54,761 nt of DNA from an uncultured bacterium (GCA_964634665.1 CAZWJZ010000002.1:1-54761), one strand, 5' to 3'; shown: positions 1 through 54,761, counted from the stretch's first letter. Numbers and translations are program-made. Notes: generated by a model not told the origin, from the sequence alone.

Positions 1-67
1 GATGCTTCTCGAGTTTTAGTAGCTCTGCTTCACTTTCTTTAATCAGTTTCTTATACTCCAAACGCAT
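1..67 (-). CDS. First 22 codons (MRLEYKKLIKESEAELLKLEKH...) of an ORF that runs off the left edge; function unknown
   Basis: ATG at 67-65 (minus). A CATAAT -10-like hexamer (79-74, minus) ends 6 nt upstream and there is no SD, so this is a leaderless-type start. Too short to classify. Confidence 0.3.
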   Translation of the reverse strand, partial: MRLEYKKLIKESEAELLKLEKH

Positions 68-76
68 CTTCCCATT

Positions 77-105
77 ATGACACTTTCTGAGCAGTTTGGT
101 ATAAT
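77..105 (+). promoter_or_regulatory. Sigma70-type promoter ATGACA-17-TGgTATAAT, back to back with the minus-strand start at 67
   Basis: -35-like ATGACA at 77-82. Extended -10 TGgTATAAT at 97-105. No convincing plus-strand gene lies downstream. Confidence 0.35.
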
Positions 106-196
106 ACTATCGAAAAGTCCAAACTTGAGGCGTTAGCTTCTACTTAAGGTATGTCAGAACCAAGAGTAGTTGAGAATCTACATACACAGAAACTTG

Positions 197-231
197 AGCT
201 CCTACTCGGTGAAAGTTCGAGAATAGGAGCT
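197..231 (-). terminator. Hairpin immediately after the GH42 stop; probable operon terminator
   Basis: AGCTCCTACTCG (197-208) pairs with CGAG..TAGGAGCT (218-231). On the minus strand it is followed by a short T-containing tract. Confidence 0.45.
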
Positions 232-260
232 ATTTACAAAGTATCAAGGCATTTATTTTG

Positions 261-2222
261 TTAAATGTCATCTTTAATAAAAGCAACATCTACAGAATCT
301 AGCTTTATGCTTTTTGAATCAGGAAGCTCGAGTGTTACTTGGGTGGGGTTAAAGTTCATGGCGTAGCTTATGTTTCCTCTTTTGCTGAGTCTTACGCCTT
401 CAGGCATGGTGTGTAGGGGTATTTGGGCGAGTTCTAAGATGGGTTTTAGTACTAGTGTGAGTGTGTCTGCTTCTGCCCACATGCCTATGGTGGTGCAGCT
501 TCCTTTTTTAAATAGGTTTCTGCTTATAGCGGTCTCATGTTCATAAGCTGCTGTTTGGTAAGTGGCTAGGGTTTTGGCAGTGGTGGGGCTCAGAACGTCT
601 GCCCATGTGTGGTAAGGGTAGCTTTTATCATTAAAGCTAATGCTTTCTTTGATGCCGGGCCTGATGGCATCTACATGGTAAATGTTTACACCCATGAGTT
701 TTGCTAGGGGGCCGGGTGCGGGTGCATGAGCAATGTTTGTGAGGTTTTTAAAGCCACTGCGGGGGCCTATGACTAAGTGATTACCTGCTTCTACGAAGGC
801 TTCTAAATGTTTTGCTAGAGCGTCATCTACTAAGTGTAAGGCGGGTGCAACAGCTACTTTGTAAGCACTTAAGTTGCTTCTAGGGTGAATAATGGCGACA
901 TTTAAGCCCAGTGCACGTAAGGCACTGTAGTAAGTCATCATTAAGCCCCAGTAATCCCAGCCTTGTGCGTGTCTTTGTAAGTTGCTTGCCCACATGCTTT
1001 CGTAATCAAATAGCAAAGCAACATCTGCATGTAACTTAGTAGTGTTAAGGTCTAGAGACTCGAGTTCTTTAAATACTTGTTTGGCTTCTGTGCTGGCTCT
1101 GTCTTCTGTGCCGTCGTGGTTGTTGAGCCCTGCATGCATGAGTTCTTGTGCGCCTCTAGCGGCACGCCAACGAAAGTAGGCAACGACATCGGCTCCATGT
1201 GCAAAGGCTTGGTGAGTCCATAGGCGCACGGCGCCTTTAGCAGGTAGTGGGTTATTGGGGGCCCAGTTTACCTGACCGGGTTGTTGCTCCATAACCCAGA
1301 AGGGTTGATCTTTTAAGCCTACATAAAGGTCATGCATGAAGCTGATTAAATCAGGATGCCCGACACGTAAATAATGAGCTTTTACATTATCATCTAGATT
1401 ACTTTGATCAAGCATGCCCAAAGGGTAACTATCCCACGTGACAATATCTATATCTTTAGCAAATTTGAAGTGATCGAAGTGCTCAAAGAACAGCATGACA
1501 TTATGCGTAATGGGGTAGCTCGAGTGTTCTCTAATAATGCTGCATTGCAGTTGATTGTAAGTAATCATGCTGTCAGAGGCAAAACGATAATAATCAAGAT
1601 TATGGCTTGGGTGTGCCTCTGTGGTGGTTAGAAAAGGCAGGTCAATTTCATCAAAACTTTGGTATTCCATGCTCCAGAAGACGTTCCACCATGCTTCGTT
1701 GAGTGCGTCTGTGGTGCCGTATTTTTCTTTTAACCAAGTTCTAAAGTCACGTTTGCAGTTGTCGCAGTAACAACGAATGGTGTCATGGCAGCCGTACTCG
1801 TTATCTGTTTGCCAAGCGGCGATTGCTTCATGCTTACCGTAACGCTCTGCGAGTAGGGTGGTTATGCGTTTTGTTTCTTCGCGGTAGCTTAGTGAGTTAA
1901 AACAGTAGTGCTTTCGAGATCCAAAATGTCGTTTATGACCATCTGCACCTACTTGTAAAATATCATCGTATTTGTCTATAAGCCATTTAGGGGGTGTAGC
2001 TGTAGGGGTACCTAAAACAACCTTAAGCCCTGCTGCGCCTAAAATATCAATAGAGCGGTCAAGCCAATCAAAATTAAGTTCACCAGAGCGCGGCTCGAGT
2101 CTGCTCCATGCAAATTCAGCAATGCGTACCCAGTTAATACCCAGGTCTTTCATGCGTTTAGCGTCGGGCTGCCAAGTTTCTTCGGGCCAATGCTCTGGGT
2201 AGTAACAAACACCTAATTTCAT
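261..2222 (-). CDS. Beta-galactosidase, glycoside hydrolase family 42
   Basis: MKLGVCYYPEHWPEE..INWVRIAEFAWSRLEP N-terminus, WQTDNEYG catalytic region, about 650 aa. The ATG at 2222 has AGGA about 6 nt upstream. The track ORF begins 7 codons earlier at a TTG. Confidence 0.9.
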   Translation of the reverse strand: MKLGVCYYPEHWPEETWQPDAKRMKDLGINWVRIAEFAWSRLEPRSGELNFDWLDRSIDILGAAGLKVVLGTPTATPPKWLIDKYDDILQVGADGHKRHFGSRKHYCFNSLSYREETKRITTLLAERYGKHEAIAAWQTDNEYGCHDTIRCYCDNCKRDFRTWLKEKYGTTDALNEAWWNVFWSMEYQSFDEIDLPFLTTTEAHPSHNLDYYRFASDSMITYNQLQCSIIREHSSYPITHNVMLFFEHFDHFKFAKDIDIVTWDSYPLGMLDQSNLDDNVKAHYLRVGHPDLISFMHDLYVGLKDQPFWVMEQQPGQVNWAPNNPLPAKGAVRLWTHQAFAHGADVVAYFRWRAARGAQELMHAGLNNHDGTEDRASTEAKQVFKELESLDLNTTKLHADVALLFDYESMWASNLQRHAQGWDYWGLMMTYYSALRALGLNVAIIHPRSNLSAYKVAVAPALHLVDDALAKHLEAFVEAGNHLVIGPRSGFKNLTNIAHAPAPGPLAKLMGVNIYHVDAIRPGIKESISFNDKSYPYHTWADVLSPTTAKTLATYQTAAYEHETAISRNLFKKGSCTTIGMWAEADTLTLVLKPILELAQIPLHTMPEGVRLSKRGNISYAMNFNPTQVTLELPDSKSIKLDSVDVAFIKDDI

Positions 2223-3627: not shown

Positions 3628-5286
3628 TTAACTGTAAGCCTGTGAGCGGTTAAAGCGAAACTGAATGAAGGTAAAGCCAAAAATAATTAAGAAGAGAATC
3701 CATGCAATGGAGCTAGCGTAACCAAAATTAAATTGAAAGAAACCCTGACGGTACAAGTAGTAGACCATCGTGCTTGACTGTTCAGGAATGGGGTTAGAAG
3801 GAAACAAGGCATAAGGTTCATTAAAGACTTGTAAGCCTGTGACCATGGTGGTAATGAGTACAAAAAAAGTGGTGGGTGCTAAGAGGGGCAAGGTAACATT
3901 TATGAAGCGCTGCCAAGGGTTAGCACCATCAATCATAGAGGCTTCGTAAAGTGAAATGGGTACACCCTGCAATCCAGCTAAAAAAAGCACGGTGTTATAG
4001 CCTACAACTTGCCAAGCTGCCAAAATGACTACAGAAATAAGAACGACATTGGGGTCTGAAAGCCATAAGATTTCTTGCGGGCTTGCGCCAAACCAAGCTG
4101 CAACTTGGCTAATGCTGTAATTAATAAAGCCTGTCGTTGGGGTGTAAAGCCAACGCCAAATAAGGGCAGTTCCTACAACCGCAGCGACAGAAGGTAAAAA
4201 GTACAAGGCACGAAAAAACTTAACGCCCGGTAAAGAAGAATTCAGAATTAAAGAAATACCTAGTGCAGGTAAAATAGCTAAAGGTAATAGAAGTAAACAA
4301 AATAAGAGGGTGTTGCCTAAACTAATCCAGAAAAGTCTATCTTTAGCACCAAAGATAATACGACTATCACCAAATCTAAAGTCTCGTACAACTGCGTAGC
4401 CAAAATCAAGCGCATCTTGAGCATTCATACTCGAGTCTGTAATGGTTTTAAATTGTACTGAGAGCAGTTTTGCGTAGTTATCAACGCCAACCCAGTGGGG
4501 TACTTGACCTACGGAACTGTCGGTAAAACTTAAGTAAAACGAGAGTAGCAAGGGGGCTGCAAAAAAGAATAAAAAGCCAATAATGTTAGGTGATAACATA
4601 AACCAACCCTGCCATGCATTACGCTGTTCTGGGCTTTCACCAAAGACTTTAGCTAAGCTAAGTAAACGAAAAATAGCAATTAAGAACATAATAACAAGCA
4701 AACTAAGTAGCCATGTTTGCCAATTTGAATATTGTGATAAAACAAAATTAGCTCCGCCCAAAATGTTAGAGCGTAGTAATAAAGTAATGAGCGTAAGAGC
4801 TGCTAAGAAGAGTGCAAAGCGTTCAAGAACAAGCTTTAAAAGACCTTGGAGTTTGCCAGAAAAAAAGAACAGAGCATAAGCAAAAGCAAAGCCTAAATTC
4901 CAAAAGCCATTTGCCATAATGCCATCAACAATAAATTCGTAGCTATCGTAAAAGCCCCAGAGGCCTAAAAGGGCAAAGCTGCTAAGTGCAAAACCAGCAA
5001 CATTTACAAGTAACGAAGCGTAACGCCCAAAGTTGCGTTTGCCAAGCAAGAAAATGCTACCTATAACAGCAAAGACAGCAGGTAGCAGCACAATAAGACC
5101 AGCAAAATACTGAACAGGTTTACCTAAATCAGCAGGTTTTCCCAAAATACTCAAGGTATCCATTTGAAAAATAGTTGTAGCCAAAATAGCACAGCTAATC
5201 GCTAAGACAAGATTCCAGATAGAAAGAAGATAAATAGAAGCTCGAGCTCGAGTTGTTAAGGCTTGATGCAAAGGGTCTGTAGTCAT
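3628..5286 (-). CDS. Carbohydrate ABC transporter permease (MalF type) with a roughly 230-aa N-terminal multi-TM extension
   Basis: EAA loop LYEASMIDGANPWQRFINVTLPLLAP in the C-terminal half. The N-terminal half is hydrophobic with no recognisable motif. Confidence 0.85.
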   Translation of the reverse strand: MTTDPLHQALTTRARASIYLLSIWNLVLAISCAILATTIFQMDTLSILGKPADLGKPVQYFAGLIVLLPAVFAVIGSIFLLGKRNFGRYASLLVNVAGFALSSFALLGLWGFYDSYEFIVDGIMANGFWNLGFAFAYALFFFSGKLQGLLKLVLERFALFLAALTLITLLLRSNILGGANFVLSQYSNWQTWLLSLLVIMFLIAIFRLLSLAKVFGESPEQRNAWQGWFMLSPNIIGFLFFFAAPLLLSFYLSFTDSSVGQVPHWVGVDNYAKLLSVQFKTITDSSMNAQDALDFGYAVVRDFRFGDSRIIFGAKDRLFWISLGNTLLFCLLLLPLAILPALGISLILNSSLPGVKFFRALYFLPSVAAVVGTALIWRWLYTPTTGFINYSISQVAAWFGASPQEILWLSDPNVVLISVVILAAWQVVGYNTVLFLAGLQGVPISLYEASMIDGANPWQRFINVTLPLLAPTTFFVLITTMVTGLQVFNEPYALFPSNPIPEQSSTMVYYLYRQGFFQFNFGYASSIAWILFLIIFGFTFIQFRFNRSQAYS

Positions 5287-5416
5287 TTTTACCGCCTTTG
5301 AAGAGGGTTTCTTAAAGCCAACTGAGGCTTGAGGGATTGAGGCTTAATTTCTAAAATAAAGTGTAATAAAAAGAGCAATTCGCATGAATTGCTCTTTTTA
5401 TTATTAATGTTTTGCT

Positions 5417-6676
5417 TTAGTTACCAAACTCTGGTGCAACTTGCGTACAAATGGTATCAGCAAACTCTTGGGCGCTTAATTCACCATTGTAAATAGAGGT
5501 GACAGCGTTACCGTAAGCAGCGTCAACAGCTGGCCAGTTGCCTGCAAAAAGAGGAGCTTCTGTACGTACATCAGCAGCAGTTGTGCCATCAATAAATGCT
5601 TGATTATTAACACCACTACCAGCTAGTGTAGCTAAGAAAAGCTCAATGGCTTCAGGCGTAGCGCGACTAGGAATGTTGGCACCTAAAGAAGCAATTTGAC
5701 CTTGAATTTCAGCACTGGTTAAGCGAGTCACTAAATCCCAAGCTGCTTCTGGATTTTCAGTTTTGGCATTAACAACATAAGCACCCCAGAAAAGCCAGTT
5801 TGTGGCTTCACCACTAGGGCCAATGGGTAGTGGTGCAACGTTCCAGTTAAAGCCTGCATTAGCAATCGTACCAGGGGTAGCCCAACGACCATTAAGGAAC
5901 ATACCAACATTACCAGCTAAGAAAGGCGGCTCAGAGTCAGTACCCCAAGGAATAGCTGCGCCACTCTTAATAAGATCAGCTGAGAAATCTAAACCAGCAA
6001 CAGTTGCTTCATTATTTAAACCACAAGCACTGTAGTCTTCATTAAAGAAGCTACTACCTGCAGCATTTACAAAGTAACCCCAGTTAGCCCACCAAGCGTT
6101 CATACCGAAGCCATAAATTTCATCACCAAGACCACTTATGTCATTAACGGCAGTCTCAAAGCGATCCCAGTTCCAGTTATCGCCACCTGGGTAGTCAAGA
6201 CCTGCTTCATCAAAAAGATCAGCATTGTAGTAAAGTGCAAAGGCACTCACATCTCTTGGTAAACCCCACAGTGCGTCACCGTCATCTATAGGGGTTGTTA
6301 AGAAGCCCATAGGGCCAGCGTAAAAGTCAGTTTCATTGTAGTTAGCATCGCTAGCAGCAACATCAGCTAAGTTAAGAATAAGGCCTGCCTGAGCAAAACG
6401 AGCAATATCTGTTCCCGGAATCCAGAAGACATCAGGAGCAGTTCCTGCTTCAATTTCTGTTACCAGCACATCTTGATAACCAGCGCCCTCAGAACCACCT
6501 GGCTCGTAAACCAAGCTCACGCCATCCCAGTCAGCATCAATAGCAGCACTAGCTGACTCATAAACATCAATTTCAGCCTGATTATCAGGGCGGGTGCGCC
6601 AACGTAAACTAATATCTTGCGCAAATACTTCAGAAGCAAATGCAAACACGAGAACTAAAGCCAAAAGTTTTTTCAT
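5417..6676 (-). CDS. Extracellular sugar-binding protein of the ABC transporter (SBP family 1)
   Basis: Signal peptide MKKLLALVLVFAFASEVFAQ, Trp/Asn/Gly-rich SBP_bac_1-like sequence. The ATG at 6676 has AAGGA upstream. The track ORF starts 5 codons earlier at a TTG. Confidence 0.85.
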   Translation of the reverse strand: MKKLLALVLVFAFASEVFAQDISLRWRTRPDNQAEIDVYESASAAIDADWDGVSLVYEPGGSEGAGYQDVLVTEIEAGTAPDVFWIPGTDIARFAQAGLILNLADVAASDANYNETDFYAGPMGFLTTPIDDGDALWGLPRDVSAFALYYNADLFDEAGLDYPGGDNWNWDRFETAVNDISGLGDEIYGFGMNAWWANWGYFVNAAGSSFFNEDYSACGLNNEATVAGLDFSADLIKSGAAIPWGTDSEPPFLAGNVGMFLNGRWATPGTIANAGFNWNVAPLPIGPSGEATNWLFWGAYVVNAKTENPEAAWDLVTRLTSAEIQGQIASLGANIPSRATPEAIELFLATLAGSGVNNQAFIDGTTAADVRTEAPLFAGNWPAVDAAYGNAVTSIYNGELSAQEFADTICTQVAPEFGN

Positions 6677-6827
6677 ATCTATCCTTTTCAAAAATTACTA
6701 TCTAAAAACACAATTAAATGCAAGCGACGACAAAAACTAAATCACAGTAATTACAATTAACCACCCCCTAAAAAAGCTCGAGCTAAGAAAGCTAGCCAAA
6801 GCTTAAGCATAACTAAGTAAGCTCGAG

Positions 6828-7862
6828 TCATGAACTTAAGCCTTTAACAGCTTGCGTACTCGAGCGTAGGATGAGTTCAGGGAAAAGAATGCGCTGCTGT
6901 GGCACGGGGGCGTCTTGTTCAAATAGAGAGAGTAAGTAAGTGACGCTTTGTTGACCTAGTAAGTTAAAGTCTTGCCTTATGGTGCTTAAGGGAGGGTCTA
7001 TAAATTCGGCTTCTGGAATGTCATCAAAGCCAATGATAGATAGATCTTCTGGTATCTTGAGGCCGTGTTCTTTGAAAGCGCGGTAAGCCCCTAAGGCCAT
7101 ATGGTCATTAGCAACAATGAGGGCGCTAAACTTTAGGTTTTGTGCTTTGCTTTTTTCTAAGAGTGTCTGGGCTGCATGATAGCCACTTTTTACGGACCAG
7201 TCACCTTCTGCACTTAAGCTGAGCTTTAAACCAGTTTTGCTAAGAACTTGCTCTAAGGCTTCTTGCCGTGAGGCGGCAACCGCCCAATTTAAAGGCCCAC
7301 TTATGCTGGCAATATGTTTGTGGCCAAGTGTCATAAGGTGCTTGGTTGCTAAGTTGATGCCGTGTTCTTGGTCAATAAGGACTGAGGCAATATGTTGCCC
7401 TTTACTAATATCTATCATGACATAAGGTGTTTGGCCAAGCTGCTCTTTAATTTTGTTGAAATTTAGTTCAGCAATAGGGGTAATGAGTAAAATGCCGTCT
7501 AATTGTTGTATATCTATATCAGCAAAGAGGTCCTCTAGTGTCTCGGTTTGAGGGTCATCAATAAAATTAATATGTAGCTTGTAGCCTTTTTGCTTAAGGC
7601 TTGCTTCTATACCTTTTAAAACTTGCCAAGGCCCATAATAGGCATTACCAAAACTAATAATGCCAATGCTATTAGAACGACCTGTGGATAGCCGTCTAGC
7701 TGCGTCATTGGGTCGGTAGCCTAATTTTTCAATGGTGTTCAAAATGCGCTTACGTGTTTTTTCTGCCACATGAGGACTATTATTAATAACTCTAGAGACC
7801 GTCTGGTAAGAAACACCGGCAGCTTTAGCAACGTCATTAATGGTTAAGGCTTTTGAAGACAT
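6828..7862 (-). CDS. LacI-family transcriptional repressor
   Basis: N-terminal HTH TINDVAKAAGVSYQTVSRVINN followed by a periplasmic-binding-fold effector domain. Confidence 0.9.
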   Translation of the reverse strand: MSSKALTINDVAKAAGVSYQTVSRVINNSPHVAEKTRKRILNTIEKLGYRPNDAARRLSTGRSNSIGIISFGNAYYGPWQVLKGIEASLKQKGYKLHINFIDDPQTETLEDLFADIDIQQLDGILLITPIAELNFNKIKEQLGQTPYVMIDISKGQHIASVLIDQEHGINLATKHLMTLGHKHIASISGPLNWAVAASRQEALEQVLSKTGLKLSLSAEGDWSVKSGYHAAQTLLEKSKAQNLKFSALIVANDHMALGAYRAFKEHGLKIPEDLSIIGFDDIPEAEFIDPPLSTIRQDFNLLGQQSVTYLLSLFEQDAPVPQQRILFPELILRSSTQAVKGLSS

Positions 7863-7895
7863 AAGTAAAAAAGCATCCTTATAAATAATAAAAAT

Positions 7896-7909
7896 TGTGA
7901 CCGCTCACA
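7896..7909. promoter_or_regulatory. LacI-type operator TGTGACCGCTCACA
   Basis: Inverted TGTGA/TCACA arms 34 nt upstream of the lacI-family start; resembles the symmetric lac operator TGTGAGCGCTCACA. Confidence 0.55.
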
Positions 7910-8096
7910 TCATAGCCTTGTAACTAAAGCTTGTCAATTATCAGACCTTAATTAATGAGTCTCATAAAGACGAACTATGCGATACAGATTACAATTAGAA
8001 GTAGAAAATTACTTAGCCCATTCAAAATACTCGAGTGTTGTCTATATTCGAAGCTAATTTAAAACGCTTTTCAAACTTATAAACTAGCCAAGTAAA

Positions 8097-8110
8097 TGTG
8101 AACGCTCACT
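8097..8110. promoter_or_regulatory. Second LacI-type operator-like site TGTGAACGCTCACT
   Basis: Near copy of the site at 7896, about 200 bp further upstream. Confidence 0.4.
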
Positions 8111-8468
8111 ATTGTAAGAGTAGCTCTCTCTTCTAAGCCTAATAGGGCAGCTATTAACACCAAAACAGAGTCAATGGTAATCACCCCAACGCAATACAAA
8201 GAACTCGAGCACTATACTTTTGTTAAGTAACTATTCAGACTTAGGAGTCTATTAGTGGTCTTAGGGTACTATTGAAAGGCTGTCTAGGACGACTTATTTT
8301 AATGAGAAAGAGCATTTTAGTCTGGTAATTGATAAGATTTTGGGTTATTTTCTCATCTTGGAAGCTGTCCAGGACGTATTTTCTTGGGCTGAGTAGTTAC
8401 TTTGTTAAAGCTTAAGTCAGACTAAGTTTGTTATTAGTTGCTGTTGCTTTGTGTTGGAAGGAATCTTA

Positions 8469-9452
8469 ATGTCTTATTTACTTCGCGGGCTCGCCGCTAA
8501 TGGCAGTATTCGCGTTATTGCTGCAGATACAACGGCTTTGGTAGATGAAGCTCGACAACGGCACAGTACTACACCGTTAGCATCTGCTGCATTAGGTCGC
8601 ACCTTAACAGGTGCCCTTCTACTATCTCATGTGGTACTCAAAAATCATCAAGATAGACTCACCCTTCGCTTACGGGGTGATGGTCCTTTGGGTGGTGTGG
8701 TTGCAGATGCAGGTTTAGATGGCGCTGTAAGAGGCTATGTAAGTAACCCTAACTTAACGCTAGCTAACCGCAAAGATGGCAAGCTTGATGTGGGTAGAGC
8801 TATTGGTCAGGGTGACATAGAAATCATTCGTTCACATGCACCTTACGGTGACCCTTATAGCAGTAGCGTAAAGCTAGTAAGTGGTGAAATTGCTGAAGAC
8901 ATAGCTATGTTCTTAGCGCAATCAGAACAAATAGGCTCAGCTGTCCTTTTAGGTGTCTATGTTGAAGGTCAGCAAGTTAAACAGTCAGGTGGCGTGCTTT
9001 TACAAGCCCTACCAGGCGCAGAAGAAGCAGCCCTAACTTTATTAGAAGCAAACATAAAAGCTTTTGGGCAACTTACTGACGGCATGAGCCGTATGAGCAT
9101 GCTAGAAATACTCAATGAACTCTGCTGGGGTATGGGCTTTGAACTCTTAACAGATGACGCACTAGCCCTAAAGTTTGATTGCCGTTGTAGTGACGAAAAG
9201 GCCTTAGATGCCTTAGCTTACTTCAGCCCTGAAGAACGCCAAGATATGATTAGTCAAGATGGTGGTGCAGAAGTTGTGTGCCACTGGTGTAACGAAAAAC
9301 GTTGGTTAAACCCAGAGCAAATACAAAGCATTTCAAATAACGAAATACGCTGCCCTGACTGCCAAACCTTATGGTACAGAGAAGGTCAAGCCACCATGAT
9401 GAGAGATGACGAACGTTGTTCTTGTGGTCGCTTGGTCATGTTACCCGCTTAG
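8469..9452 (+). CDS. hslO: Hsp33 redox-regulated chaperone with an extra C-terminal Cys4 tail
   Basis: Hsp33 fold sequence with the CRC...CHWC zinc centre. GGAAGGA lies upstream of the ATG at 8469. An extra 39 aa contain CPDC...CSC. Confidence 0.9.
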   Translation: MSYLLRGLAANGSIRVIAADTTALVDEARQRHSTTPLASAALGRTLTGALLLSHVVLKNHQDRLTLRLRGDGPLGGVVADAGLDGAVRGYVSNPNLTLANRKDGKLDVGRAIGQGDIEIIRSHAPYGDPYSSSVKLVSGEIAEDIAMFLAQSEQIGSAVLLGVYVEGQQVKQSGGVLLQALPGAEEAALTLLEANIKAFGQLTDGMSRMSMLEILNELCWGMGFELLTDDALALKFDCRCSDEKALDALAYFSPEERQDMISQDGGAEVVCHWCNEKRWLNPEQIQSISNNEIRCPDCQTLWYREGQATMMRDDERCSCGRLVMLPA

Positions 9453-9559: not shown

Positions 9560-9576
9560 GATTAAACGTGCATAAT
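9547..9576 (+). promoter_or_regulatory. Promoter TTGACG-18-CATAAT of the NTPase cassette
   Basis: The -10 ends 7 nt before the ATG at 9584 and there is no SD, implying a leaderless mRNA. Confidence 0.5.
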
Positions 9577-9583
9577 GGTTTAT

Positions 9584-10759
9584 ATGAAATCAAACCCTGG
9601 TGGGCAAGTAGACCCACAAAACTTAATAGGTCGCGACCAACTCATAAAAGAAATATGGGACACACTCGAGCAGCAAAGCGTAGTCATGACAGCAGAACGT
9701 CGTATTGGTAAAACAAGCATTATGCAAAAAATGCAAGCAGAACCAAAAGAAAAATGGATACCCATATATCAAGACTTAGAGAAATACAGTTCAGCACAAG
9801 AATTTGCACAATCAGTTTATGAAATTCTAAAAACCTACCAAAACTTAAGTAAAACAGCTGAAAATTACTTACAAAACCTACGCCAAGCACTGGCGGGTTT
9901 CAAGTTTGGCGACATAGAAATACCTGAAGCAAAAGATATTCCGTGGCAAAAGCTTTTAACAAGCTCAATTACAGACTTAGTAACAGACCCAGACTGGAAT
10001 AAGTACAAACTTGTCTTCTTGTGGGATGAAATACCCTATATGCTCTCAAACATAAAAAACAAAGAAGGCGAAGAAGTTGCTAAACAAATACTCGACATCC
10101 TTCGCTCACTACGCCAAGAACAAAAAAACTTTCGCATAGTCATGACAGGCTCAATAGGCCTACACCACGTCATAATTGACCTAAAAGAAAAAGGCTACAG
10201 CACAGCACCAATAAATGACATGTATACAATAGAAGTTAACCCACTACATGAAAGATATGCCAAAGAGCTAGCAAAAAAATTAATAACAGGAGAAAACATA
10301 ACAATAGAGGGAGAAGTTCAAGAAGAAGTCATAAGCACATTAGTTGAACAAACTGACGCCTTTCCCTACTACATACACCACATCATAAAAACGCTAAAAA
10401 CAGCAACAAACCCTATAACAAAAGAAACCGTAGAAGAAGTAGTGAAACAACAACTAACAAACTCAGATGACCCATGGCAACTAAGACACTTCGAAGAACG
10501 CCTACCCACCTACTACGAAGGTGAAGACAAAATAGCTAAACTCATATTAGATGAACTTGCCGTTCAAGACAGCCCACAATCAGTCAAAGATATGCAAAAA
10601 AGCATAACAAGCCAAACAGCATTAAAAGACCTAGAACAACTACGCAAACTCTTAAGACTTATGGCGCAAGACCACTACCTAAACAAAAACACCGACAATA
10701 AATACAGCTTTCGCTTCTCACTCATAAAACGCTGGTGGAAACTCGAAAGAGACCTCTAA
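9584..10759 (+). CDS. AAA+/Arch_ATPase-like P-loop NTPase with a C-terminal winged-helix-like domain
   Basis: Walker A TAERRIGKTS, Walker B LVFLWDEIP, sensor IVMTGS. An alternative in-frame ATG at 9575 lies inside the -10 hexamer. Confidence 0.7.
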   Translation: MKSNPGGQVDPQNLIGRDQLIKEIWDTLEQQSVVMTAERRIGKTSIMQKMQAEPKEKWIPIYQDLEKYSSAQEFAQSVYEILKTYQNLSKTAENYLQNLRQALAGFKFGDIEIPEAKDIPWQKLLTSSITDLVTDPDWNKYKLVFLWDEIPYMLSNIKNKEGEEVAKQILDILRSLRQEQKNFRIVMTGSIGLHHVIIDLKEKGYSTAPINDMYTIEVNPLHERYAKELAKKLITGENITIEGEVQEEVISTLVEQTDAFPYYIHHIIKTLKTATNPITKETVEEVVKQQLTNSDDPWQLRHFEERLPTYYEGEDKIAKLILDELAVQDSPQSVKDMQKSITSQTALKDLEQLRKLLRLMAQDHYLNKNTDNKYSFRFSLIKRWWKLERDL

Positions 10760-12913
10760 ATGACCACCGAACCCCCAAAATACCTATCTGTCTTCACACC
10801 CAGCCAAACCAACCCAGAAGACCTAGAAGCCATATTTGTACAAAGACAAGACTACCTAAAAGACGCCATAGAACGCATAAAAGAAAGCGCAACCACAGGC
10901 AACAAACACCACCAACTCATAGTAGGCCAACGTGGCTCAGGCAAAACCAACCTAGTCACCCTACTCGTATACAGACTCGAGCAAGACCAAACACTAAAAG
11001 AGCAGTTACAAATAGCATGGCTAAATGAAGATGAAACCAGCGTAAAATTCTTAGACATCCTCTTAAGAATCTACCAAGCACTAAACAAACGCTACCCCAA
11101 GTACTACCCACAAAACACGCTAGAAGAAGCCTACGAAAAAACAGAAAAACAAGCACAAGACTACCTTGCTACAAGCATAGCAAGCAGCCTAAACCAAAAC
11201 AAAAAAACCCTACTCATAATCATAGAAAACCTAGATGCAGTCTTTGAAAGCATAGGTGACCAAGGCCAAAAACAACTACGAGCCTACATACAAGAAAACC
11301 CACACTTCAGCATTTTTGCCACTGCACAAAAACTCATAGATAACTTAACAAACCGCAAAGACCCCTTCTTTGGCTTCTTTCAAACAGAACACCTACAACC
11401 CCTAAACGAACAAGAAGCCACCCAACTCATAAGCAACATAGCAGACCTACAACACAAACCCAAGGTAACAGCATTCTTAAAAACACCCAAAGGCCAAGCA
11501 CGCATAAAAGCACTACACCACCTATCAGGCGGCAACCACCGCATGTACATAGTACTCTCACAATTCATAAATCAAGACAGTATAGATGCACTCGTACCAC
11601 CTTTTCTAAAAATGGTAGACGAACTCACCCCCTACTACCAAGAACGGCTAAGATGGCTACCCCCCCAACAACGCAAAATAATAGAACAACTAAGCAACAG
11701 CCGAACCACCATGACCGTAACCCAACTAGCCAAACGCCTATTTGCAAGCAACCAAACAACCTCAAAACAACTACAAGAACTACGCAACAAAGGCTACGTG
11801 CAATCACACAAAGACGGGCGTGAATCACACTATGAAATAAGTGAACCCCTCATGCGCATATGCACCGAAGTAAAAGAAAACCAAAGAAACGAACCCCTAG
11901 CTATACTCATAGACTTTATAAGAGCATGGTACGACAGCCAAGACCTAAACGAACGCCTGAAAAATAAAGCTATTTCAACAACAGCTAAATACTATTTAGA
12001 AGCAGCACTTGAAAAAAGCATGTCTTTAGAAAGGAAAATTAACAAACAACTAACCCTAACTGACAAGAGCTTAGCCAAAACACTTAACTCTTATGATACG
12101 AAGCAAAGTGAGGTAGAGGCTTTTGACGAAAAGATAGCTGATTTGACCCAAGTGATTGAGTTGAAAGATGCACCTGTTGAGCAAGTAGCTATTGCACTTT
12201 TGTATCGTGGTGTTAGTTATGGTCAGCTGGGTGAAACGGATAAAGAGATAGCTGATTACACTCAAGTGATTGAGTTGAAAGATGCACCTGTTGAGCAAGT
12301 AGCTATTGCACTTGTTGGTCGTGGTATAGGCTTTTTTGGTAAAAAAGAATATGTTTTGGCAAGTCAAGATTTAAGAGCAATTATTTTAAATTACACTTCT
12401 CATTATGAGCAAGTTCAACTTGCATATATGTGCTTGGCTGAACTAGAGCTTATACAGATGCATTGGACAGAAGCGTTACAATGCATTACTGAAGGGTTGA
12501 AAGTAATGCTTGATGACAATGATTCAAGCCGCTACAACTCTCAAGATATCATTGGCGCTTTGTTTACAACGACTCAAGCTACACAAGAGCGCACAGAGCG
12601 TATTACTGAAATGCTTCAAATTTACAAGAACCATGAGCAGGCGCTTGCTTCTTTGGGGTCAGGTCTGGTCGAGCATTTGGGTTCTTTATTTCAAGCAGAT
12701 GAATTACCTTTTAAAGATAATCTAGAGTCTTGGTTAGTTGCTTGGCAAGCAGCAAGTAAAGATATTGAAGGTTTAAGTGTTGCTATGCGCATTTTTGAAG
12801 TGGGTGTAGAGTTCTTGAAGTCTAAAGGTAAGCATGAAGGGGTTTTGTATACGTTGGTAGAGACTGAACGTAGTATTTTGAGGCAGGCTTTAGGGTTAGA
12901 TGAAGCTTCTTAA
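10760..12913 (+). CDS. ORC/Cdc6- or STAND-like P-loop NTPase with a winged HTH and C-terminal TPR-like repeats
   Basis: Walker A VGQRGSGKTNL, Walker B LLIIIENLD, wHTH MTVTQLAKRLFASNQTTSKQLQELRNKGYVQSHKDGRESHYEIS, and a repeated helical C-terminus. The start abuts the upstream stop (TAAATG). Confidence 0.7.
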   Translation: MTTEPPKYLSVFTPSQTNPEDLEAIFVQRQDYLKDAIERIKESATTGNKHHQLIVGQRGSGKTNLVTLLVYRLEQDQTLKEQLQIAWLNEDETSVKFLDILLRIYQALNKRYPKYYPQNTLEEAYEKTEKQAQDYLATSIASSLNQNKKTLLIIIENLDAVFESIGDQGQKQLRAYIQENPHFSIFATAQKLIDNLTNRKDPFFGFFQTEHLQPLNEQEATQLISNIADLQHKPKVTAFLKTPKGQARIKALHHLSGGNHRMYIVLSQFINQDSIDALVPPFLKMVDELTPYYQERLRWLPPQQRKIIEQLSNSRTTMTVTQLAKRLFASNQTTSKQLQELRNKGYVQSHKDGRESHYEISEPLMRICTEVKENQRNEPLAILIDFIRAWYDSQDLNERLKNKAISTTAKYYLEAALEKSMSLERKINKQLTLTDKSLAKTLNSYDTKQSEVEAFDEKIADLTQVIELKDAPVEQVAIALLYRGVSYGQLGETDKEIADYTQVIELKDAPVEQVAIALVGRGIGFFGKKEYVLASQDLRAIILNYTSHYEQVQLAYMCLAELELIQMHWTEALQCITEGLKVMLDDNDSSRYNSQDIIGALFTTTQATQERTERITEMLQIYKNHEQALASLGSGLVEHLGSLFQADELPFKDNLESWLVAWQAASKDIEGLSVAMRIFEVGVEFLKSKGKHEGVLYTLVETERSILRQALGLDEAS
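12132..12312 (+). repeat. 114-bp (38-codon) tandem duplication inside the NTPase-TPR gene
   Basis: AGATAGCTGATT..CAAGTGATTGAGTTGAAAGATGCACCTGTTGAGCAAGTAGCTATTGCACTT occurs at 12132 and again at 12246 with 3 mismatches in about 68 nt. Confidence 0.85.
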
Positions 12914-12937
12914 GAATTACCTTCCTTTGTGTTAAAC

Positions 12938-12964
12938 AAAAAACCGCAGCTTTAAAAGCTGCGG
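12938..12964 (-). terminator. Intrinsic terminator between convergent genes; strong on the minus strand, possibly bidirectional
   Basis: CCGCAGC-TTTAAAA-GCTGCGG, with AAAAAA on the plus side giving TTTTTT on the minus strand. Confidence 0.75.
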
Positions 12965-12986
12965 TTAGAGTTCAAGAAGCAAAGGT

Positions 12987-13619: not shown

Positions 13620-13779
13620 GATGCTCCTTCTTACAATAATACGGCAAAGTGCCGAATAGCTTAAACTGATTATAAAGAAAAGCTCGAGCTTTTTGCCCTC
13701 AGGCATCACGTTTTATGGTCAACATGAAATAATTGTGAATAGAATTTTTGGTACAACTAGGAAAAAGAAAAGGTGATGT

Positions 13780-36486: not shown

Positions 36487-36521
36487 ACTTTTCACCTTCT
36501 ACTTTTCACTTTCTACTTTTT
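36487..36521 (+). repeat. Five tandem ACTTTTC-type heptads in the dinB-aroE spacer
   Basis: ACTTTTC ACCTTCT ACTTTTC ACTTTCT ACTTTTT, ending 8 nt before the aroE ATG. No SD. Confidence 0.8.
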
Positions 36522-36529
36522 GCGTTCTT

Positions 36530-48921: not shown

Positions 48922-50013
48922 CTAGTCTAAAGAGATAAAGCGCTCGAGTACTCGAGTGTTTGCTAAGTTGCTTTGAAATACGTCTGCTAGGTTGGCTACG
49001 GTTTGAACTTGCATGTCGGTATTTTGATTAGGGTAGTCTTCATTTTGCCATGTTTCATTCCACCATGAGAAGCCTTTAAGGCTATCCCAGCGGTTAGATA
49101 AGATGGCTTTTAGAGCGTCATCTGCCCAGATGGCAGGGTCCCCTAGAGGGTTAGCTGCGGGCGCACCAAACTCTAAAACAAAGACAGGTTTAGTGTTACT
49201 TAAAGCATTAAATCTAGGAATAGCAGTGTCTAGCGCTTCGGTAAAATCATCCCAGTAATCATCAAAAGGTGCTTGAGCTGCATACAAAGAAACACCAAGC
49301 CAGTCCACAACATCATCACCAGGGTAATAAGCTTCAAAGGTATTCCACGGTTCTTCAGGGAAGTCATAGGCATTTACGTGAAACACCCACGTAATATTGC
49401 TTGCCCCTTGAGCCTTTATGGTACTAACAATATGACGATAACTTTGTTTAAATAAGTCTGTATCCTGCTGATTCTGAGCACCACTCCAAGAGAACCAATC
49501 CCCATTCATTTCAGCTCCCCACTCGACAATAAGTGGAGATTTAAAAGCTGCCGCGGCTTTGCCCCATGCTTCTAAATCGCTATCAAAAACACCATTTACA
49601 ATATTCTCTAAGCTAAAAACAGTCTCCTCAGTATAAATTTCAGCAGAGGAGCGCAACATAAGGCGAATAAAAGGAACAGAACCGCTATCCTTAATCCAAG
49701 ATACGGTTTCTAAAGGAAAACTACGATTTTGATACCAGTTATGAGAGAAATAAACCCAAGCTGCTTTACGACCCACCGCAGTTTCATAAGACACTAAGCC
49801 TTCAAGACTAATGTCATCTTCTTCACCACTGACCCCACCAGGGTAAACCCCATGATAATACTGACCCTGCTCAGGTAGCGCCAAGCCAAAAGATTCATTA
49901 GCCGTTACATTTGCAGCGTTGCAAGCAAGCAAACAAACAAGAAGCAAAACAAAACTCAAATAACCCTTAAAAACAGTGAAGAAAACCCCTTGTAAACTCG
50001 AGTGTCTAGTCAT
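48922..50013 (-). CDS. Secreted glycoside hydrolase, GH26-like
   Basis: Signal/anchor sequence and EWGAEMNGDWFSWSG, resembling the GH26 HE-NG-WFWW motif. Confidence 0.65.
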   Translation of the reverse strand: MTRHSSLQGVFFTVFKGYLSFVLLLVCLLACNAANVTANESFGLALPEQGQYYHGVYPGGVSGEEDDISLEGLVSYETAVGRKAAWVYFSHNWYQNRSFPLETVSWIKDSGSVPFIRLMLRSSAEIYTEETVFSLENIVNGVFDSDLEAWGKAAAAFKSPLIVEWGAEMNGDWFSWSGAQNQQDTDLFKQSYRHIVSTIKAQGASNITWVFHVNAYDFPEEPWNTFEAYYPGDDVVDWLGVSLYAAQAPFDDYWDDFTEALDTAIPRFNALSNTKPVFVLEFGAPAANPLGDPAIWADDALKAILSNRWDSLKGFSWWNETWQNEDYPNQNTDMQVQTVANLADVFQSNLANTRVLERFISLD

Positions 50014-50104: not shown

Positions 50105-51616
50105 TTACTGTAAGCGACTTCTTACATAATCAGCTAAATCAGCTACGGCAACACGCTCTTGATTCATACTGTCACGATCACGAATTGTTACGGTATCTTT
50201 AAGCTCTGCTTCACCTTTACCAATGGTGTCAAAATCTACCGTAACGCAAAAAGGAGTTCCTACTTCATCATGACGACGGTAAGCTTTACCTATATTGCCC
50301 GTATCTTCATAAAAAACACGTCCAAAACCAAGAGCCTGCAAATTACGTTTTATCTCTTTAGCTTTGCCAGTAATATCCTCATCGTTTTTCTTTAAAGGAA
50401 TAACAGCTACCTTAATAGGGGATAAGTGAGGTCTAAGCTTAAGCACAATACGTGACTTACCATCCCCTAAATCTTCATCGGTATACGCTTCTGTTAAAAC
50501 AGCCAGTACACCCCTATCAACCCCAGCTGAAGGCTCAATAACAAAAGGCACGATAGGTTTATTGGTATCAGGGTCAGGAATGGTTAACTTAGCTGTACTA
50601 TCTTGATTCTTACCAACCTCAGCAGTTAAGTCCAGCGTATCTTGATTTTTGCTATGCGAACCCAAATCAAAATCAGTCCGATTTGCTATACCCTCGAGTT
50701 CCTCTAAACCATGCGGAAATCTATACATAATATCAACTGCTGATTTTGCGTAGTGCGCTAAGTCAGCAGGCGTTTGCTGATACAAATCTAAGTTATCACT
50801 CTCTAAACCCTGATCTCGCCACCAAGCAAGCCTATCTTCAATCCACTGCTTATGCATAGCTTCATCTTGACCTGGTTGCACAAAATACTCAATTTCCATC
50901 TGCTCAAACTCACGAACCCGAAAAATAAAGTTACGAGGCGTAATTTCATTTCGAAAAGCTTTACCAATTTGAGCAATGCCAAAAGGTAGTTTGCGTGAAG
51001 TTGAATCAACTACATTCTTAAAGTTCACAAAAATAGCTTGCGCTGTTTCTGGCCTAAGGTAAGCGTAAGATTCATCATCTTCAACAGGACCCACCGTTGT
51101 TTTGAACATCATGTTAAACGGTCTTGGTTCCGTCCAGTTACCCACTTTGCCATTCTCAGGGTCAGCCACTTTAGCAGCATTAAGCGCTTCAGAAGCTTTG
51201 GCAGAATCTTTCATTATATGCGCAACAAGAGCATTAATATCACTAGTATCTTCAAAATCTACCAGCTCAGCTAAAGCTTTTAAGGTAGCTTCTTTCTGAT
51301 CAGCAAGCAAATGATCAAGACGATAACGCTTTTTACTCTCACGATTATCTACCAGCGGGTCAGAAAACGTAGCCTCATGACCTGAGTGACGCCAAATAAG
51401 ACGATGCGTCAAAATAGAAGCGTCAAGCCCCTCCATATCATCACGCTCATAAATAGTGGCCTTCCACCAAGCTGCTTTTAAGTTGTTCTTAAGTTCCACC
51501 CCGAGTGGACCGTAATCATAAGTACCTTGCAGACCACCATAAATATCTGAACCTTGAAAAATAAAGCCTCTTCGTTTACAAAGAGAAACAAGCTCATCCA
51601 TTGTTTTTGCTGGCAT
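50105..51616 (-). CDS. glyQS: Glycine--tRNA ligase, dimeric class II type
   Basis: [43 protein letters not shown] at 51616 with GGAGG 6 nt upstream. The track ORF over-extends 34 codons into the T-box leader. Confidence 0.92.
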
Positions 51617-52132: not shown

Positions 52133-52138
52133 CGTTTT

Positions 52139-52793: not shown

Positions 52794-52815
52794 CTTAAAT
52801 CTTAATTGTATTGAT

Positions 52816-52989: not shown

Positions 52990-53004
52990 TGTCTCTGTTT
53001 TAAT

Positions 53005-53063
53005 GATTTAAGCTGTTTCGATAACATTTGATTTAAGCTGTTCCGATAACATTTGATTCAAGG
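53005..53063 (+). repeat. 25-bp tandem repeat, about 2.3 copies
   Basis: GATTTAAGCTGTTTCGATAACATTT / GATTTAAGCTGTTCCGATAACATTT / GATTCAAGG. Confidence 0.85.
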
Positions 53064-53138: not shown

Positions 53139-53160
53139 ATAATTAGGCATGCCTAATTAT
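53139..53160. promoter_or_regulatory. DtxR/MntR-type operator, perfect 22-bp palindrome overlapping a TATAAT -10
   Basis: ATAATTAGGCA|TGCCTAATTAT. TATAAT at 53138-53143. Confidence 0.7.
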
Positions 53161-53177
53161 TTTCTTAGGAATATTTT

Positions 53178-53867
53178 ATGAAAAAAGCTGCCGTGAGTAG
53201 TTCAATGGAGGATTACCTAAAAGCTATCTTTGAATTAGGTGAATCTACAGTTAAAACGCAAGATTTAGCAGCTGAGCTTGATGTGAGTTCTGCTAGTGTC
53301 ACGGGCATGATTAAGAAGCTAAGTGACCTTAAGCTGATTGATTATGAGCGCTATTACGGCGTTAGTTTGACAAAGGCAGGTCGACTTATTGCGCTTGAAA
53401 CGCTGCGCCATCATCGGCTCTTAGAGACTTATTTAGCGCAAGCCCTTGGTTACGCATGGCATGAAGTTCACGCGGAGGCTGAACATTTAGAGCACCATAT
53501 TAGTGAAGCCTTTGAAGACAAAATTGCCGATCTTTTAGGTCACCCAAATTATGACCCGCATGGTGACCCTATTCCGCAAAGGGATGGTACGGTGCCACAA
53601 AGTCTAGGTAGACCTTTACCGGAATTTAGTGCTGATGAAAAGCTAATTATAACTAGAGTAAAAGGTAAAGAAGCTGAGCTGCTTAAGTATTTGGCTGAGC
53701 ATAAGCTGGTACCGAATAGCAACTTAGTTATAACGACCAAAGCACCTTTTGATGGGCCAATTACAGTGACGTGTGAAGGCTCGAGTGTGGCTTTGGCGTT
53801 TGCGGTTGCTGAGCGTCTTGAGGTTGAAAAACTTAGTGTGCTTGACAAGTTGAAACAAGCTGTTTAA
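53178..53867 (+). CDS. mntR: DtxR-family manganese/iron-responsive repressor with a C-terminal SH3-like/FeoA domain
   Basis: MEDYLKAIFELGE, wHTH, and metal-site HH..E..H residues in HEVHAEAEHLEHH. Confidence 0.88.
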   Translation: MKKAAVSSSMEDYLKAIFELGESTVKTQDLAAELDVSSASVTGMIKKLSDLKLIDYERYYGVSLTKAGRLIALETLRHHRLLETYLAQALGYAWHEVHAEAEHLEHHISEAFEDKIADLLGHPNYDPHGDPIPQRDGTVPQSLGRPLPEFSADEKLIITRVKGKEAELLKYLAEHKLVPNSNLVITTKAPFDGPITVTCEGSSVALAFAVAERLEVEKLSVLDKLKQAV

Positions 53868-53890
53868 TATTTAGGCATGCCTAAATATTA
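53865..53890. promoter_or_regulatory. Second DtxR/MntR-type operator, perfect 26-bp palindrome
   Basis: TAATATTTAGGCA|TGCCTAAATATTA overlaps the mntR stop codon and lies 23 nt before the next start. Confidence 0.7.
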
Positions 53891-53912
53891 GTTTAGGCTA
53901 TGGAGGTAAGCA

Positions 53913-54761
53913 ATGAATAGACGGATTCTGATGGGTCTTAGTTTTGTTTTTCTACTAAGCATCTGCGTCGCTCAAGCGGAACCCAAAGTTGTCGTAACTA
54001 TAGGTATGCTTGGTGATATTGTCAAAGAAATAGGCGGTGACTGCATAGATGTTGAAGTCATGATGGGCCCAGGCATAGACCCACACTTATATAAAGCAAG
54101 CGCAGGCGATGTGCAAACGTTGCAAAATGCAGACATTATTTTCTACTCAGGTTTACACCTAGAAGGACAACTTGGCGAAGTCTTCGAAAATTTAGCTCAA
54201 AAACGACCTGTCATAGCTGTAACTGAACGCGCTGTACCCGAAGAAAGCATCATAAAAACTAGCTCAGATTACGGTGTAGACCCACATGTCTGGATGGACT
54301 CGAGTCTTTGGGCACAAACAATCGACGTAATTGCCGAAGAACTAAGCAAACTCAAACCTGACTGCGCAACAGACATAAACACTCGAGCGCAAACTTACAA
54401 ACCACAACTCTTAGCTTTGCATGACTGGGTGAAAACGAGTATTGCTAGCATTCCGGCAGAACAACGCATTTTGGTTACAGCGCATGATGCTTTCTTTTAC
54501 TATGCTAAGGCCTACAGCATAGATGTAGCAGGCATTCAGGGTATATCTACAGAATCAGAAGCAGCTATTGCAGATATTCGTGATACGGTAGATACCATAG
54601 TAGAACGCAATGTCCCTGCGATTTTTGTTGAAAGCACCATTAACCCGCGCACTATAGAAGCTGTCAAACAAGCGGTTGAAGACAGAGGCCAAAGCATCGT
54701 CATAGGTGGTGAACTCTTCTCAGATGCTATGGGTGAGAGCGGTAGTGCAGCTGGTACTTAT
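53913..54761 (+). CDS. Metal (Mn/Zn) ABC transporter substrate-binding protein, TroA/ZnuA cluster 9, 3'-truncated by the window end
   Basis: GGAGG RBS and a signal peptide. GPGIDPHLY and DPHVWMD metal-ligand motifs. Open for 283 codons to the window edge. Not in the ORF track because no stop codon falls within the window. Confidence 0.85.
   Translation, partial: MNRRILMGLSFVFLLSICVAQAEPKVVVTIGMLGDIVKEIGGDCIDVEVMMGPGIDPHLYKASAGDVQTLQNADIIFYSGLHLEGQLGEVFENLAQKRPVIAVTERAVPEESIIKTSSDYGVDPHVWMDSSLWAQTIDVIAEELSKLKPDCATDINTRAQTYKPQLLALHDWVKTSIASIPAEQRILVTAHDAFFYYAKAYSIDVAGIQGISTESEAAIADIRDTVDTIVERNVPAIFVESTINPRTIEAVKQAVEDRGQSIVIGGELFSDAMGESGSAAGTY

Follow-up and report, generated by a model that had tools for sequence, protein, structure and literature searches.

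Why should a six-base palindrome recur about every 680 bp in DNA of 41.8% GC? The question is raised by a stretch of 54,761 bp from an uncultured bacterium (GCA_964634665.1 CAZWJZ010000002.1:1-54761; "the window" hereafter designates this whole stretch), in which CTCGAG occurs 81 times (1479 per Mb) between positions 8 and 54387. A first inspection of this DNA (hereafter the sequence-only reading) had located at least 81 sites, about one per 0.7 kb, where an order of 10 was expected, had compared them to HIP1, the highly iterated palindrome (HIP) of cyanobacteria, and had attributed them to a driver acting at the DNA level. The exact count is indeed 81, the last site lying at 54382-54387, and an order 0 Markov model predicts 8.8. 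The data presented here suggest, with a probability of roughly 0.55, that CTCGAG is a HIP-type, methylation-linked genome tag; the excess itself is real and is a clade-wide trait, not a peculiarity of the window.

Markov models of order 0, 1, 2, 3 and 4 predict 8.8, 5.1, 4.3, 17.4 and 66.6 copies of CTCGAG, respectively, the observed/expected (O/E) ratio being 9–19 for orders 0–2. The motif ranks first among the 4096 hexamers (z = 37 under order 2), the words directly behind it in this ranking are overlapping ones, and no other palindromic hexamer shows a clear excess in the window; the control palindrome GAGCTC, which is made of the same two triplets, is present in 7 copies. It had been proposed that an O/E ratio near 1 under a higher-order Markov model would argue against the phenomenon. 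At order 4, the maximal order, this ratio is 1.22, which, taken formally, would argue against it, but this null model was rejected as circular, being conditioned on the sub-words of the motif itself (81 of the 92 CTCGA, 81 of the 89 TCGAG and 81 of the 123 TCGA are inside CTCGAG). Because about 90% of the CTCGA and TCGAG words sit within the motif, the order-4 ratio is uninformative. An order-2 model computed after masking of the motif and a synonymous-codon shuffling were used instead; the former predicts 2.2 copies (O/E 37). The enrichment does not result either from a few longer repeated elements, the other outcome that had been put forward as contrary: the longest context common to any two sites is 16 nt, in only 3 of the 3237 site pairs, and a repeat search of the window found no repeat family carrying CTCGAG sites.

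The words that differ from CTCGAG by a single base are not affected. Under the motif-masked model, the 18 one-mismatch words total 98 copies vs 105 expected, TCGA outside of the motif is found 42 times vs 48 expected, and the two transition precursors CTTGAG and CTCAAG are found 26 and 14 times vs 20.7 and 19.6 expected, respectively. Since the one-off words and TCGA are at background, there is no cloud of decayed copies and no depletion of precursors; the motif is sharp, intact sites being kept. A separate avoidance of TCGA (an effect of TaqI type) was considered and ruled out, as the masked TCGA count is near expectation. Among other words of the window, CAATTG is found twice vs 14–22 expected, and eight GC-rich hexamers have no copy at all.

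In the window, the palindrome extends beyond the hexamer. Exactly 77 of the 81 sites are preceded by a purine and followed by a pyrimidine, as had been counted by hand (95% vs 42% expected, P = 2e-24; the frequency of R before CTC elsewhere is 65%), and a weaker bias towards A at position -3 and T at position +3 (57% vs 29% background) prolongs it further. The proposal that the octamer RCTCGAGY is the real unit therefore holds for the window; it does not hold for its relatives, in which the conserved core is the hexamer. The flank is indeed mostly G..C in the three relatives L002, L003 and L009 and absent in the densest clade. Given this variation between lineages, only the hexamer is conserved as a unit, the octamer representing a local dialect.

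The positions of the sites relative to genes indicate at which level the pressure is exerted. In the 51 genes called in the window (86% of its length), 65 sites (80%) are coding and distributed over the three frames (34 CTC-GAG, 18 xCT-CGA-Gxx and 13 xxC-TCG-AGx), the 16 others being outside of called genes; the field as a whole (8-54387) consists of 81 independent sites in 40 of the 51 genes and in spacers. A within-gene synonymous shuffle, which preserves the proteins and the codon usage of each gene, gives 6.8±2.4 coding sites (maximum 15 in 1000 shuffles) vs 65 observed, i.e., an excess of 8x, 9x and 24x according to the frame. Leu-Glu pairs are written CTC-GAG in 34 of 136 cases vs 4.75 expected. 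Codons are recruited by the motif: 34 of 184 CTC, 13 of 48 TCG and 18 of 58 CGA fall within sites, the latter two codons being otherwise rare. Sites are denser outside of called genes (about 2 per kb) than within genes (1.4 per kb). The nine peptides that had been read across sites (WSRLEP, KLELK, ALEQLEF, GSSGSGKT, DPRSSV, HSSY, TTRARAS, FGSARAY and MARVLE) all belong to long open reading frames and each overlaps a site, and the ten sites that had been placed in spacers are all outside of called genes. Hence, the driver of the CTCGAG excess acts on DNA and not on protein, as had been suggested. These features separate the sites from repetitive extragenic palindromic (REP) sequences and miniature inverted-repeat transposable elements (MITEs), which are imperfect palindromes of at least 20 nt found only in intergenic DNA; here, 80% of the sites are genic and no extended sequence is shared. 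They also differ from oriented signals such as Chi or KOPS (FtsK orienting polar sequences), as CTCGAG is its own reverse complement and can have no orientation.

The aminoacyl-tRNA synthetase gene assigns the window to a low-GC, Trueperaceae-like lineage of Deinococcota. The nearest genome is the uncultured metagenome-assembled genome (MAG) L002 (97% identical in amino acids and about 91% in nucleotides), followed by the Trueperaceae MAG L003 (78%) and by various Deinococcales MAGs; a contig from a stromatolite metagenome is 99.6% identical. Across a comparison set of 80 genomic loci, CTCGAG density tracks phylogeny. It reaches 1.1–2.2 sites per kb in the clade of the window (L002, L003, L004, L006, L009 and L012; motif-masked O/E 15–40) and 4.7–7.9 sites per kb in a second clade, clade B (L005, L007, L008, L010, L011, and also L046 and L069), with masked O/E up to about 100 in L005, L007, L010 and L011. 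Meiothermus and Calidithermus have 1.3–3.6 sites per kb (O/E 5–10) and Thermus about 1 per kb; Deinococcus has 0–0.3 per kb, which is under expectation, and outgroups are at expectation. Codon shuffling gives a 7–10x excess in all frames over a conservative null for the Deinococcales MAGs, which carry 8–9 sites per kb outside of genes, and a 2.5–4x excess for Meiothermus and Calidithermus (4x for L026, M. taiwanensis). CTCGAG is the top palindromic hexamer of every enriched group, and the closest metagenomic relatives of the window are likewise enriched.

Thermus was rejected as an enriched member, its raw 3–5x excess being fully accounted for by the CTC and GAG codons. This case shows that a trivial cause, i.e., codon or dipeptide usage, does operate in high-GC relatives. 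As an explanation for the window, a trivial cause of this kind, a dispersed repeat, or an assembly or adapter artefact is nevertheless already refuted and retains a negligible probability: the shuffle null leaves most of the coding sites unexplained, CTC is only 10% of the Leu codons and GAG 35% of the Glu codons, GAGCTC has 7 copies, no repeat family holds the sites, and the same excess is found in independent MAGs, in isolate genomes and in the separate 99.6%-identical metagenome contig. The phenomenon is thus a clade-wide, frame-independent and sharply defined excess of a palindrome that is due neither to a repeat family nor to a codon effect nor to an artefact.

Several loci depart from this general picture. 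L013 (Deinococcales MAG ABC2.109), which lies within the clade of the window, shows no excess (6 sites vs 3.2 expected), and the first 50 kb of the Allomeiothermus silvanus megaplasmid (L169, pMESIL01 1-50000) has the weakest one (1.85x the codon null; 1.05 sites per kb outside of genes); both are candidate natural losses of the motif enrichment. In Deinococcus spp. (among loci L018-L072), most 21-kb loci have 0–3 CTCGAG vs 1–12 expected, the reverse of their sister lineages. This avoidance by Deinococcus points to a circulation of CTCGAG-specific restriction systems in the phylum, one of which might be the ancestor of the orphan enzyme discussed below. Other palindromes are also avoided: in the densest relatives (about 100 kb), GAGCTC (the SacI site), CAGCTG, CCGCGG and ATGCAT all have zero copies, the loci considered for palindrome avoidance being L004, L005, L007, L008, L010, L011, L046, L069, L082, L103 and the whole window. 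Absences of this kind usually denote restriction avoidance and are opposite to the behaviour of CTCGAG. Four viral or proviral contigs from IMG/VR (L274, L287, L253 and L191) carry 5–6 CTCGAG per kb, with coding sites at about 3–5x the codon null; they were picked by a scan for three CTCGAG within 78 bp, which favours dense contigs. Two of them, L274 and L191, have zero GAGCTC, as in the dense Deinococcales clade.

The pressure for the motif overrides codon choice and, in the denser relatives, alters amino acids. The fraction of Leu-Glu pairs encoded by CTC-GAG is 25% in the window, where 3% would be expected, 58% in the L004 group and 77% in clade B (vs 10% expected). It amounts to 69% in Calidithermus and Meiothermus (vs 25% expected), but to 22% in Thermus (vs 26%) and to 1% in Deinococcus (vs 9%). 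As a dipeptide, Leu-Glu is also used more than expected, by 2.66-fold in clade B and 1.17-fold in the window; Glu-Leu, the control in inverse order, stays at about 1.0 (0.99 in clade B). When the synthetase genes of 23 taxa are aligned by codon, sites are found in 31 different columns and in all frames, and are partly common to close relatives. They often coincide with replacements relative to site-less orthologues: Ile-Glu to Leu-Glu (5 vs 18 sequences), Tyr-Glu to Leu-Glu, Leu-Val-Ala to Leu-Ser-Ser, and Gly-Ser-Asp/Glu to Gly-Ser-Ser.

Site turnover can be followed between the window and L002. Nine of the ten alignable window sites are common to both, vs 62% for all hexamers (P = 0.06, low power), and the three site differences are single substitutions, two of them being CpG transitions. 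One concerns a site of the class II aminoacyl-tRNA synthetase gene (50693-50698; CCTCGAGT), which is one of the four that lack the R..Y flank and reads CTCAAG in L002, so that it was gained or lost through a CpG transition. The two others are CTCAAG (41597-41602, a turnover by a single transition) and ATCGAG (43876-43881) in the window, where L002 has CTCGAG. A scan of metagenomes for close relatives of the window that would polarise gains and losses returned none above 72% amino-acid identity.

Such differences, together with a pressure that ignores frames and includes spacers, would be expected from a methylation-independent bias of mutation or repair, for example a conversion of near-cognate words resembling the very-short-patch (VSP) repair carried out by Vsr at CCWGG in Escherichia coli. 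The Dcm/Vsr pair indeed provides a repair bias that is linked to a methyltransferase site and raises the frequency of this site. Its effect is small, though (known VSP effects are less than 2-fold, vs 37–100-fold here), and it depends on the deamination of 5-methylcytosine (m5C) and depletes T:G precursors; the precursors of CTCGAG are not depleted and the documented modification is N6-methyladenine (m6A), not m5C. This explanation appears very improbable.

What could then drive the accumulation of CTCGAG? The sequence-only reading had pointed out that the hexamer is also the target of XhoI-type restriction-modification systems. Hosts of an active system avoid such targets or do not accumulate them, whereas CTCGAG is enriched 10–40x here. 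The link to an enzyme that recognizes this target is supported by published data on three relatives. Type II m6A methyltransferases specific for CTCGAG, for which no cognate nuclease is listed, were reported from three species (Blow et al. 2016, supplementary tables; PMC4752239): Meiothermus ruber DSM 1279 (M.Mru1279II, Mrub_2385; 99.5% of CTCGAG modified), Meiothermus (now Calidithermus) chliarophilus DSM 9957 (M.Mch9957IV; 94.1%) and Marinithermus hydrothermalis (M.Mhy14884I; 94.6%). No CTCGAG methylation was found in the published single-molecule real-time (SMRT) data from M. silvanus, i.e., A. silvanus (PMC4752239), the species with the weakest excess. One locus of the comparison set, L023, comes from the same C. 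chliarophilus strain, DSM 9957, and carries 74 CTCGAG sites in 21.5 kb. Three cultured relatives thus have m6A methyltransferases of exactly this specificity and with no nuclease listed, and one of the three is shown here to be enriched. These orphan enzymes recognize the same hexamer in the same phylum (Thermaceae). In its main text, the methylome survey brings up CTCGAG solely in connection with clusters of sites at the origin of Nocardia and names neither Meiothermus, Thermus nor Deinococcus; no genome-wide excess of CTCGAG is reported there for these organisms (PMC4752239). The orphan CTCGAG methyltransferase of Nocardia differs from the present case by a local cluster of sites at oriC instead of a genome-wide excess.

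An enzyme of this kind was searched for in the lineage of the window. With M.TaqI as query (verified against PDB), neither the window nor the fetched loci yielded a homologue; a protein search seeded with M.TaqI returned close TaqI orthologues only, and a search of representatives returned 150 relatives, none of which led to the enzyme of the lineage. Nine candidate methyltransferases chosen by composition and Leu-Glu content (P0204, P0132, P0128, P0180, P0175, P0237, P0233, P0268 and P0183) were discarded, as their contigs lack the CTCGAG signature. On one CTCGAG-rich metagenome contig (L103), a gene adjoining the MeaB orthologue (4940-8998, minus strand) encodes a type IIG-like restriction-modification protein of 1352 aa with an HSDR_N nuclease, an Eco57I-type methylase and a TaqI_C specificity domain; it was rejected as the conserved methyltransferase because it is absent from all other loci, and is a sporadic defence gene.

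The closest precedent remains cyanobacterial HIP1, as had been proposed. HIP1 is GCGATCGC (Elhai 2015, PMC4390886; Xu et al. 2018, PMC5861425), and alternative HIPs are GGCGCC in Calothrix PCC 7103, GCSGC in Cyanothece PCC 7822 and RCCGGY in Oscillatoria PCC 10802 (PMC4390886; PMC5861425), each of which is accompanied by a methyltransferase for that sequence (PMC4390886). Published HIP densities range from roughly 300 to 2700 copies per Mb (PMC4390886), and the 1479 copies per Mb of the window fall within this range. In both cases, the word with the strongest over-representation in the genome is a short GC-rich palindrome, with an O/E in the tens as expected of a HIP; it occurs at hundreds to thousands of copies per Mb in all frames of coding DNA and in spacers, is found lineage-wide with exceptional relatives that lack it, has palindromic flank extensions that vary by lineage, and matches the specificity of a methyltransferase without nuclease (for CTCGAG, in relatives only). 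Density, O/E, frame independence and methyltransferase target thus all support the comparison. The two differ in sequence (CTCGAG vs GCGATCGC) and in phylum (Deinococcota vs cyanobacteria), in methylation (m6A by a single enzyme vs a pair made of m6A at GATC and m5C at CGATCG), in one-off variants (common for HIP1, not over-represented for CTCGAG) and in the size of the core (6 vs 8 bp), and the CTCGAG relatives reach a higher density (7 per kb). HIP1 proper is GCGATCGC or a derivative that contains CGATCG, in cyanobacterial genomes encoding DmtA and DmtC; CGATCG has no copy in the window. CTCGAG is therefore not HIP1, yet it shows the rank, the density, the independent copies and the lineage-wide distribution of a HIP-type element.

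Taken as a whole, these data favour the view of CTCGAG as a HIP-type, methylation-linked genome tag, the reading given a probability of roughly 0.55 above. The lineage of the window would carry the same orphan methyltransferase as its cultured relatives, and the sites would constitute a dense methyl tag of resident DNA. The route by which they accumulated is proposed with less confidence than the link to methylation itself and may be viewed as a ratchet. Random mutation would create CTCGAG sites; repair or recombination near a methylated or hemimethylated site would favour the methylated, site-bearing strand or allele; the loss of sites would thus be far slower than their gain, and they would accumulate. 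Such a ratchet matches the model of Elhai for HIP1; equivalently, selection may keep every stretch of DNA tagged. The balance with protein constraint would set the density, which is 1.5 sites per kb in the window and reaches 7 per kb in relatives. A ratchet agrees with the background level of one-off words, the apparent stability of sites, their even spacing, and a density gradient that protein constraint limits.

Several points weigh against this reading. No DNA methyltransferase is encoded in the window, and about 590 kb of CTCGAG-rich loci contain no conserved one, only the sporadic type IIG enzyme of L103 (a regular-expression scan for the NPPY motif covered 586 kb of these loci). Methylation in the lineage of the window is extrapolated from the Thermaceae, and its association with enrichment is drawn from four species, A. 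silvanus being represented by its megaplasmid only. To our knowledge, Deinococcota have no MutH, so that we know of no reader of the methyl mark. Seven sites per kb far exceed the known needs of strand discrimination and fit a runaway drive better than a functional optimum. With P = 0.06, the test of site conservation against L002 is of low power. Lastly, selection cannot be told apart from a bias of repair or recombination on the basis of the window only.

Orphan m6A methyltransferases acting chromosome-wide on a short palindrome are exemplified by Dam (GATC) and CcrM (GANTC). GATC is near chance frequency and GANTC is under-represented; neither is enriched 10–100-fold, unlike CTCGAG.

Another possibility is that CTCGAG serves as a self-recognition sequence for DNA uptake and transformation, perhaps only when methylated, and spreads by molecular drive irrespective of any benefit, as do the uptake signal sequences (USS) of Pasteurellaceae and the DNA uptake sequences (DUS) of Neisseriaceae. 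This is the main rival, considered unlikely, and it partly overlaps with the methylation-linked tag, the cause being placed in uptake and recombination instead of repair. The resemblance to USS and DUS is extensive: about one or more sites per kb in all frames and in spacers, a rather even spacing (inter-site coefficient of variation of 0.79 vs 0.985 for random positions, P about 0.012), a footprint on the proteome (Leu-Glu 2.7x) and flank dialects by lineage (R..Y in the window, G..C in L003, none in clade B). DUS of different lineages likewise come in dialects. The very high densities fit a drive, and recent work on HIP1 points to a methylation-dependent boost of transformation and to a possible role as an uptake signal. 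Thermus and Deinococcus are naturally competent, which also speaks for uptake. The known uptake sequences are, however, 9–12 nt long, asymmetric and recognized by a specific uptake receptor, whereas CTCGAG is a perfect palindrome of 6–8 bp. Thermus, the best-studied competent relative, is not known to prefer any sequence when importing DNA and shows no CTCGAG enrichment; we know of no uptake specificity in Deinococcota. Moreover, competence is undocumented for the enriched lineages, and the window carries no uptake-related feature.

The even spacing would also suit a binding site of a nucleoid-organising or chromosome-maintenance protein, for which a dense and even array would be selected, methylation being incidental or regulatory. 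The presence of sites in both coding and non-coding DNA agrees with such an array, and a role in chromosome structure, suggested by the periodic distribution of HIP1, has been proposed in the literature. The period of HIP1 is on a scale of 10–90 kb, whereas the 55 kb of the window show an evenness of spacing at short range. No candidate protein is known, however; a six-base palindrome at 7 per kb that distorts the proteome would be extreme for a structural site, and the exact match with the specificity of the methyltransferases of relatives would be a coincidence. This explanation is thus quite improbable, more so than uptake.

Some sites of the window are grouped. A tandem pair (CTCGAGCTCGAG; 5241-5252), which had been noticed from the outset, lies inside an ABC-permease gene (3628-5286, minus strand) and reads T-T-R-A-R-A-S. 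Three sites (6777, 6822 and 6859) are found within 88 bp (6777-6864) across the spacer between the genes encoding a sugar-binding protein and a LacI-type regulator. Two sites 9 bp apart (23045-23059) in a TrmB-like gene are both in-frame CTC-GAG (A-L-E-Q-L-E-F), and two others 8 bp apart (48943-48956) are both kept in L002, the relative with 91% identity. The position of the sites within genes or relative to promoters or terminators follows no clear pattern, except that the last fifth of genes is marginally enriched (22 of 65 sites vs 13 expected; chi-square P about 0.04).

The longest site-free stretch (2.7 kb; 10982-13682, in the gap 10976-13683) coincides with an ATPase gene with an ArsR-type helix-turn-helix (HTH) and aberrant GC and AT skews. 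This gene, encoding 717 aa and harbouring an internal 114-nt repeat (12129-12325), lies beside a gene of the ATPase_2 family; the pair (9575-12913) has only 2 CTCGAG sites in 3.3 kb, a strongly negative GC skew (-0.31) and a strongly positive AT skew (+0.44). This region may be a recent horizontal acquisition that has yet to gain the motif.

The genes called in the window are ordinary chromosomal ones, encoding among others a GH42 galactosidase, a sugar ABC transporter, LacI, Hsp33, RecX, MeaB, a thymidine kinase, CoaE and the class II aminoacyl-tRNA synthetase; a scan of the window found no tRNA and no Rfam match. Two nearly identical 22-nt palindromes, at 53139-53161 (ATAATTAGGCATGCCTAATTAT) and 53866-53888 (AATATTTAGGCATGCCTAAATAT), bracket a gene encoding a repressor of the DtxR/MntR family (53178-53867) and are probably its operator sites. 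T/C-rich tandem repeats (TTTTCACTTTTCAC...) are located at 23434-23513 and 36490-36527, directly upstream of the start codons of a DUF1684 gene (23528) and of a shikimate dehydrogenase gene (36530), respectively. A 25-nt tandem duplication is found at 53004-53053.

It is tempting to propose, more tentatively than the link to methylation, that Deinococcota evolved a highly iterated palindrome of their own, independently of cyanobacteria, that would be tied to a conserved orphan m6A methyltransferase and would rewrite proteins. A literature search that included the HIP papers found no description of CTCGAG enrichment in Deinococcota, this check of novelty being incomplete; the HIP papers name neither CTCGAG nor this phylum. 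For three decades, where HIP1 comes from and what it does have been discussed on evidence from one phylum; an unrelated second case would establish the generality of the phenomenon and its tie to orphan methylation. CTCGAG involves another sequence, another chemistry (m6A only) and another phylum, with the same signature as HIP1. If repair, recombination or transformation does read a methyl-tagged palindrome as self, HIP-type elements would be a general, convergent bacterial solution.

The distortion of codon and dipeptide frequencies by the motif matters for gene prediction, for the detection of horizontal transfer and for binning, and CTCGAG could serve as a binning signature for the clade. 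The density gradient is steep, from clade B to the clade of the window, then to Meiothermus, and finally to A. silvanus, L013 and Thermus, with Deinococcus avoiding the site. Such on/off contrasts within one phylum, which cyanobacteria do not offer, combined with cultured relatives such as M. ruber, in which the methyltransferase gene is identified (Mrub_2385), would make the mechanism experimentally tractable.

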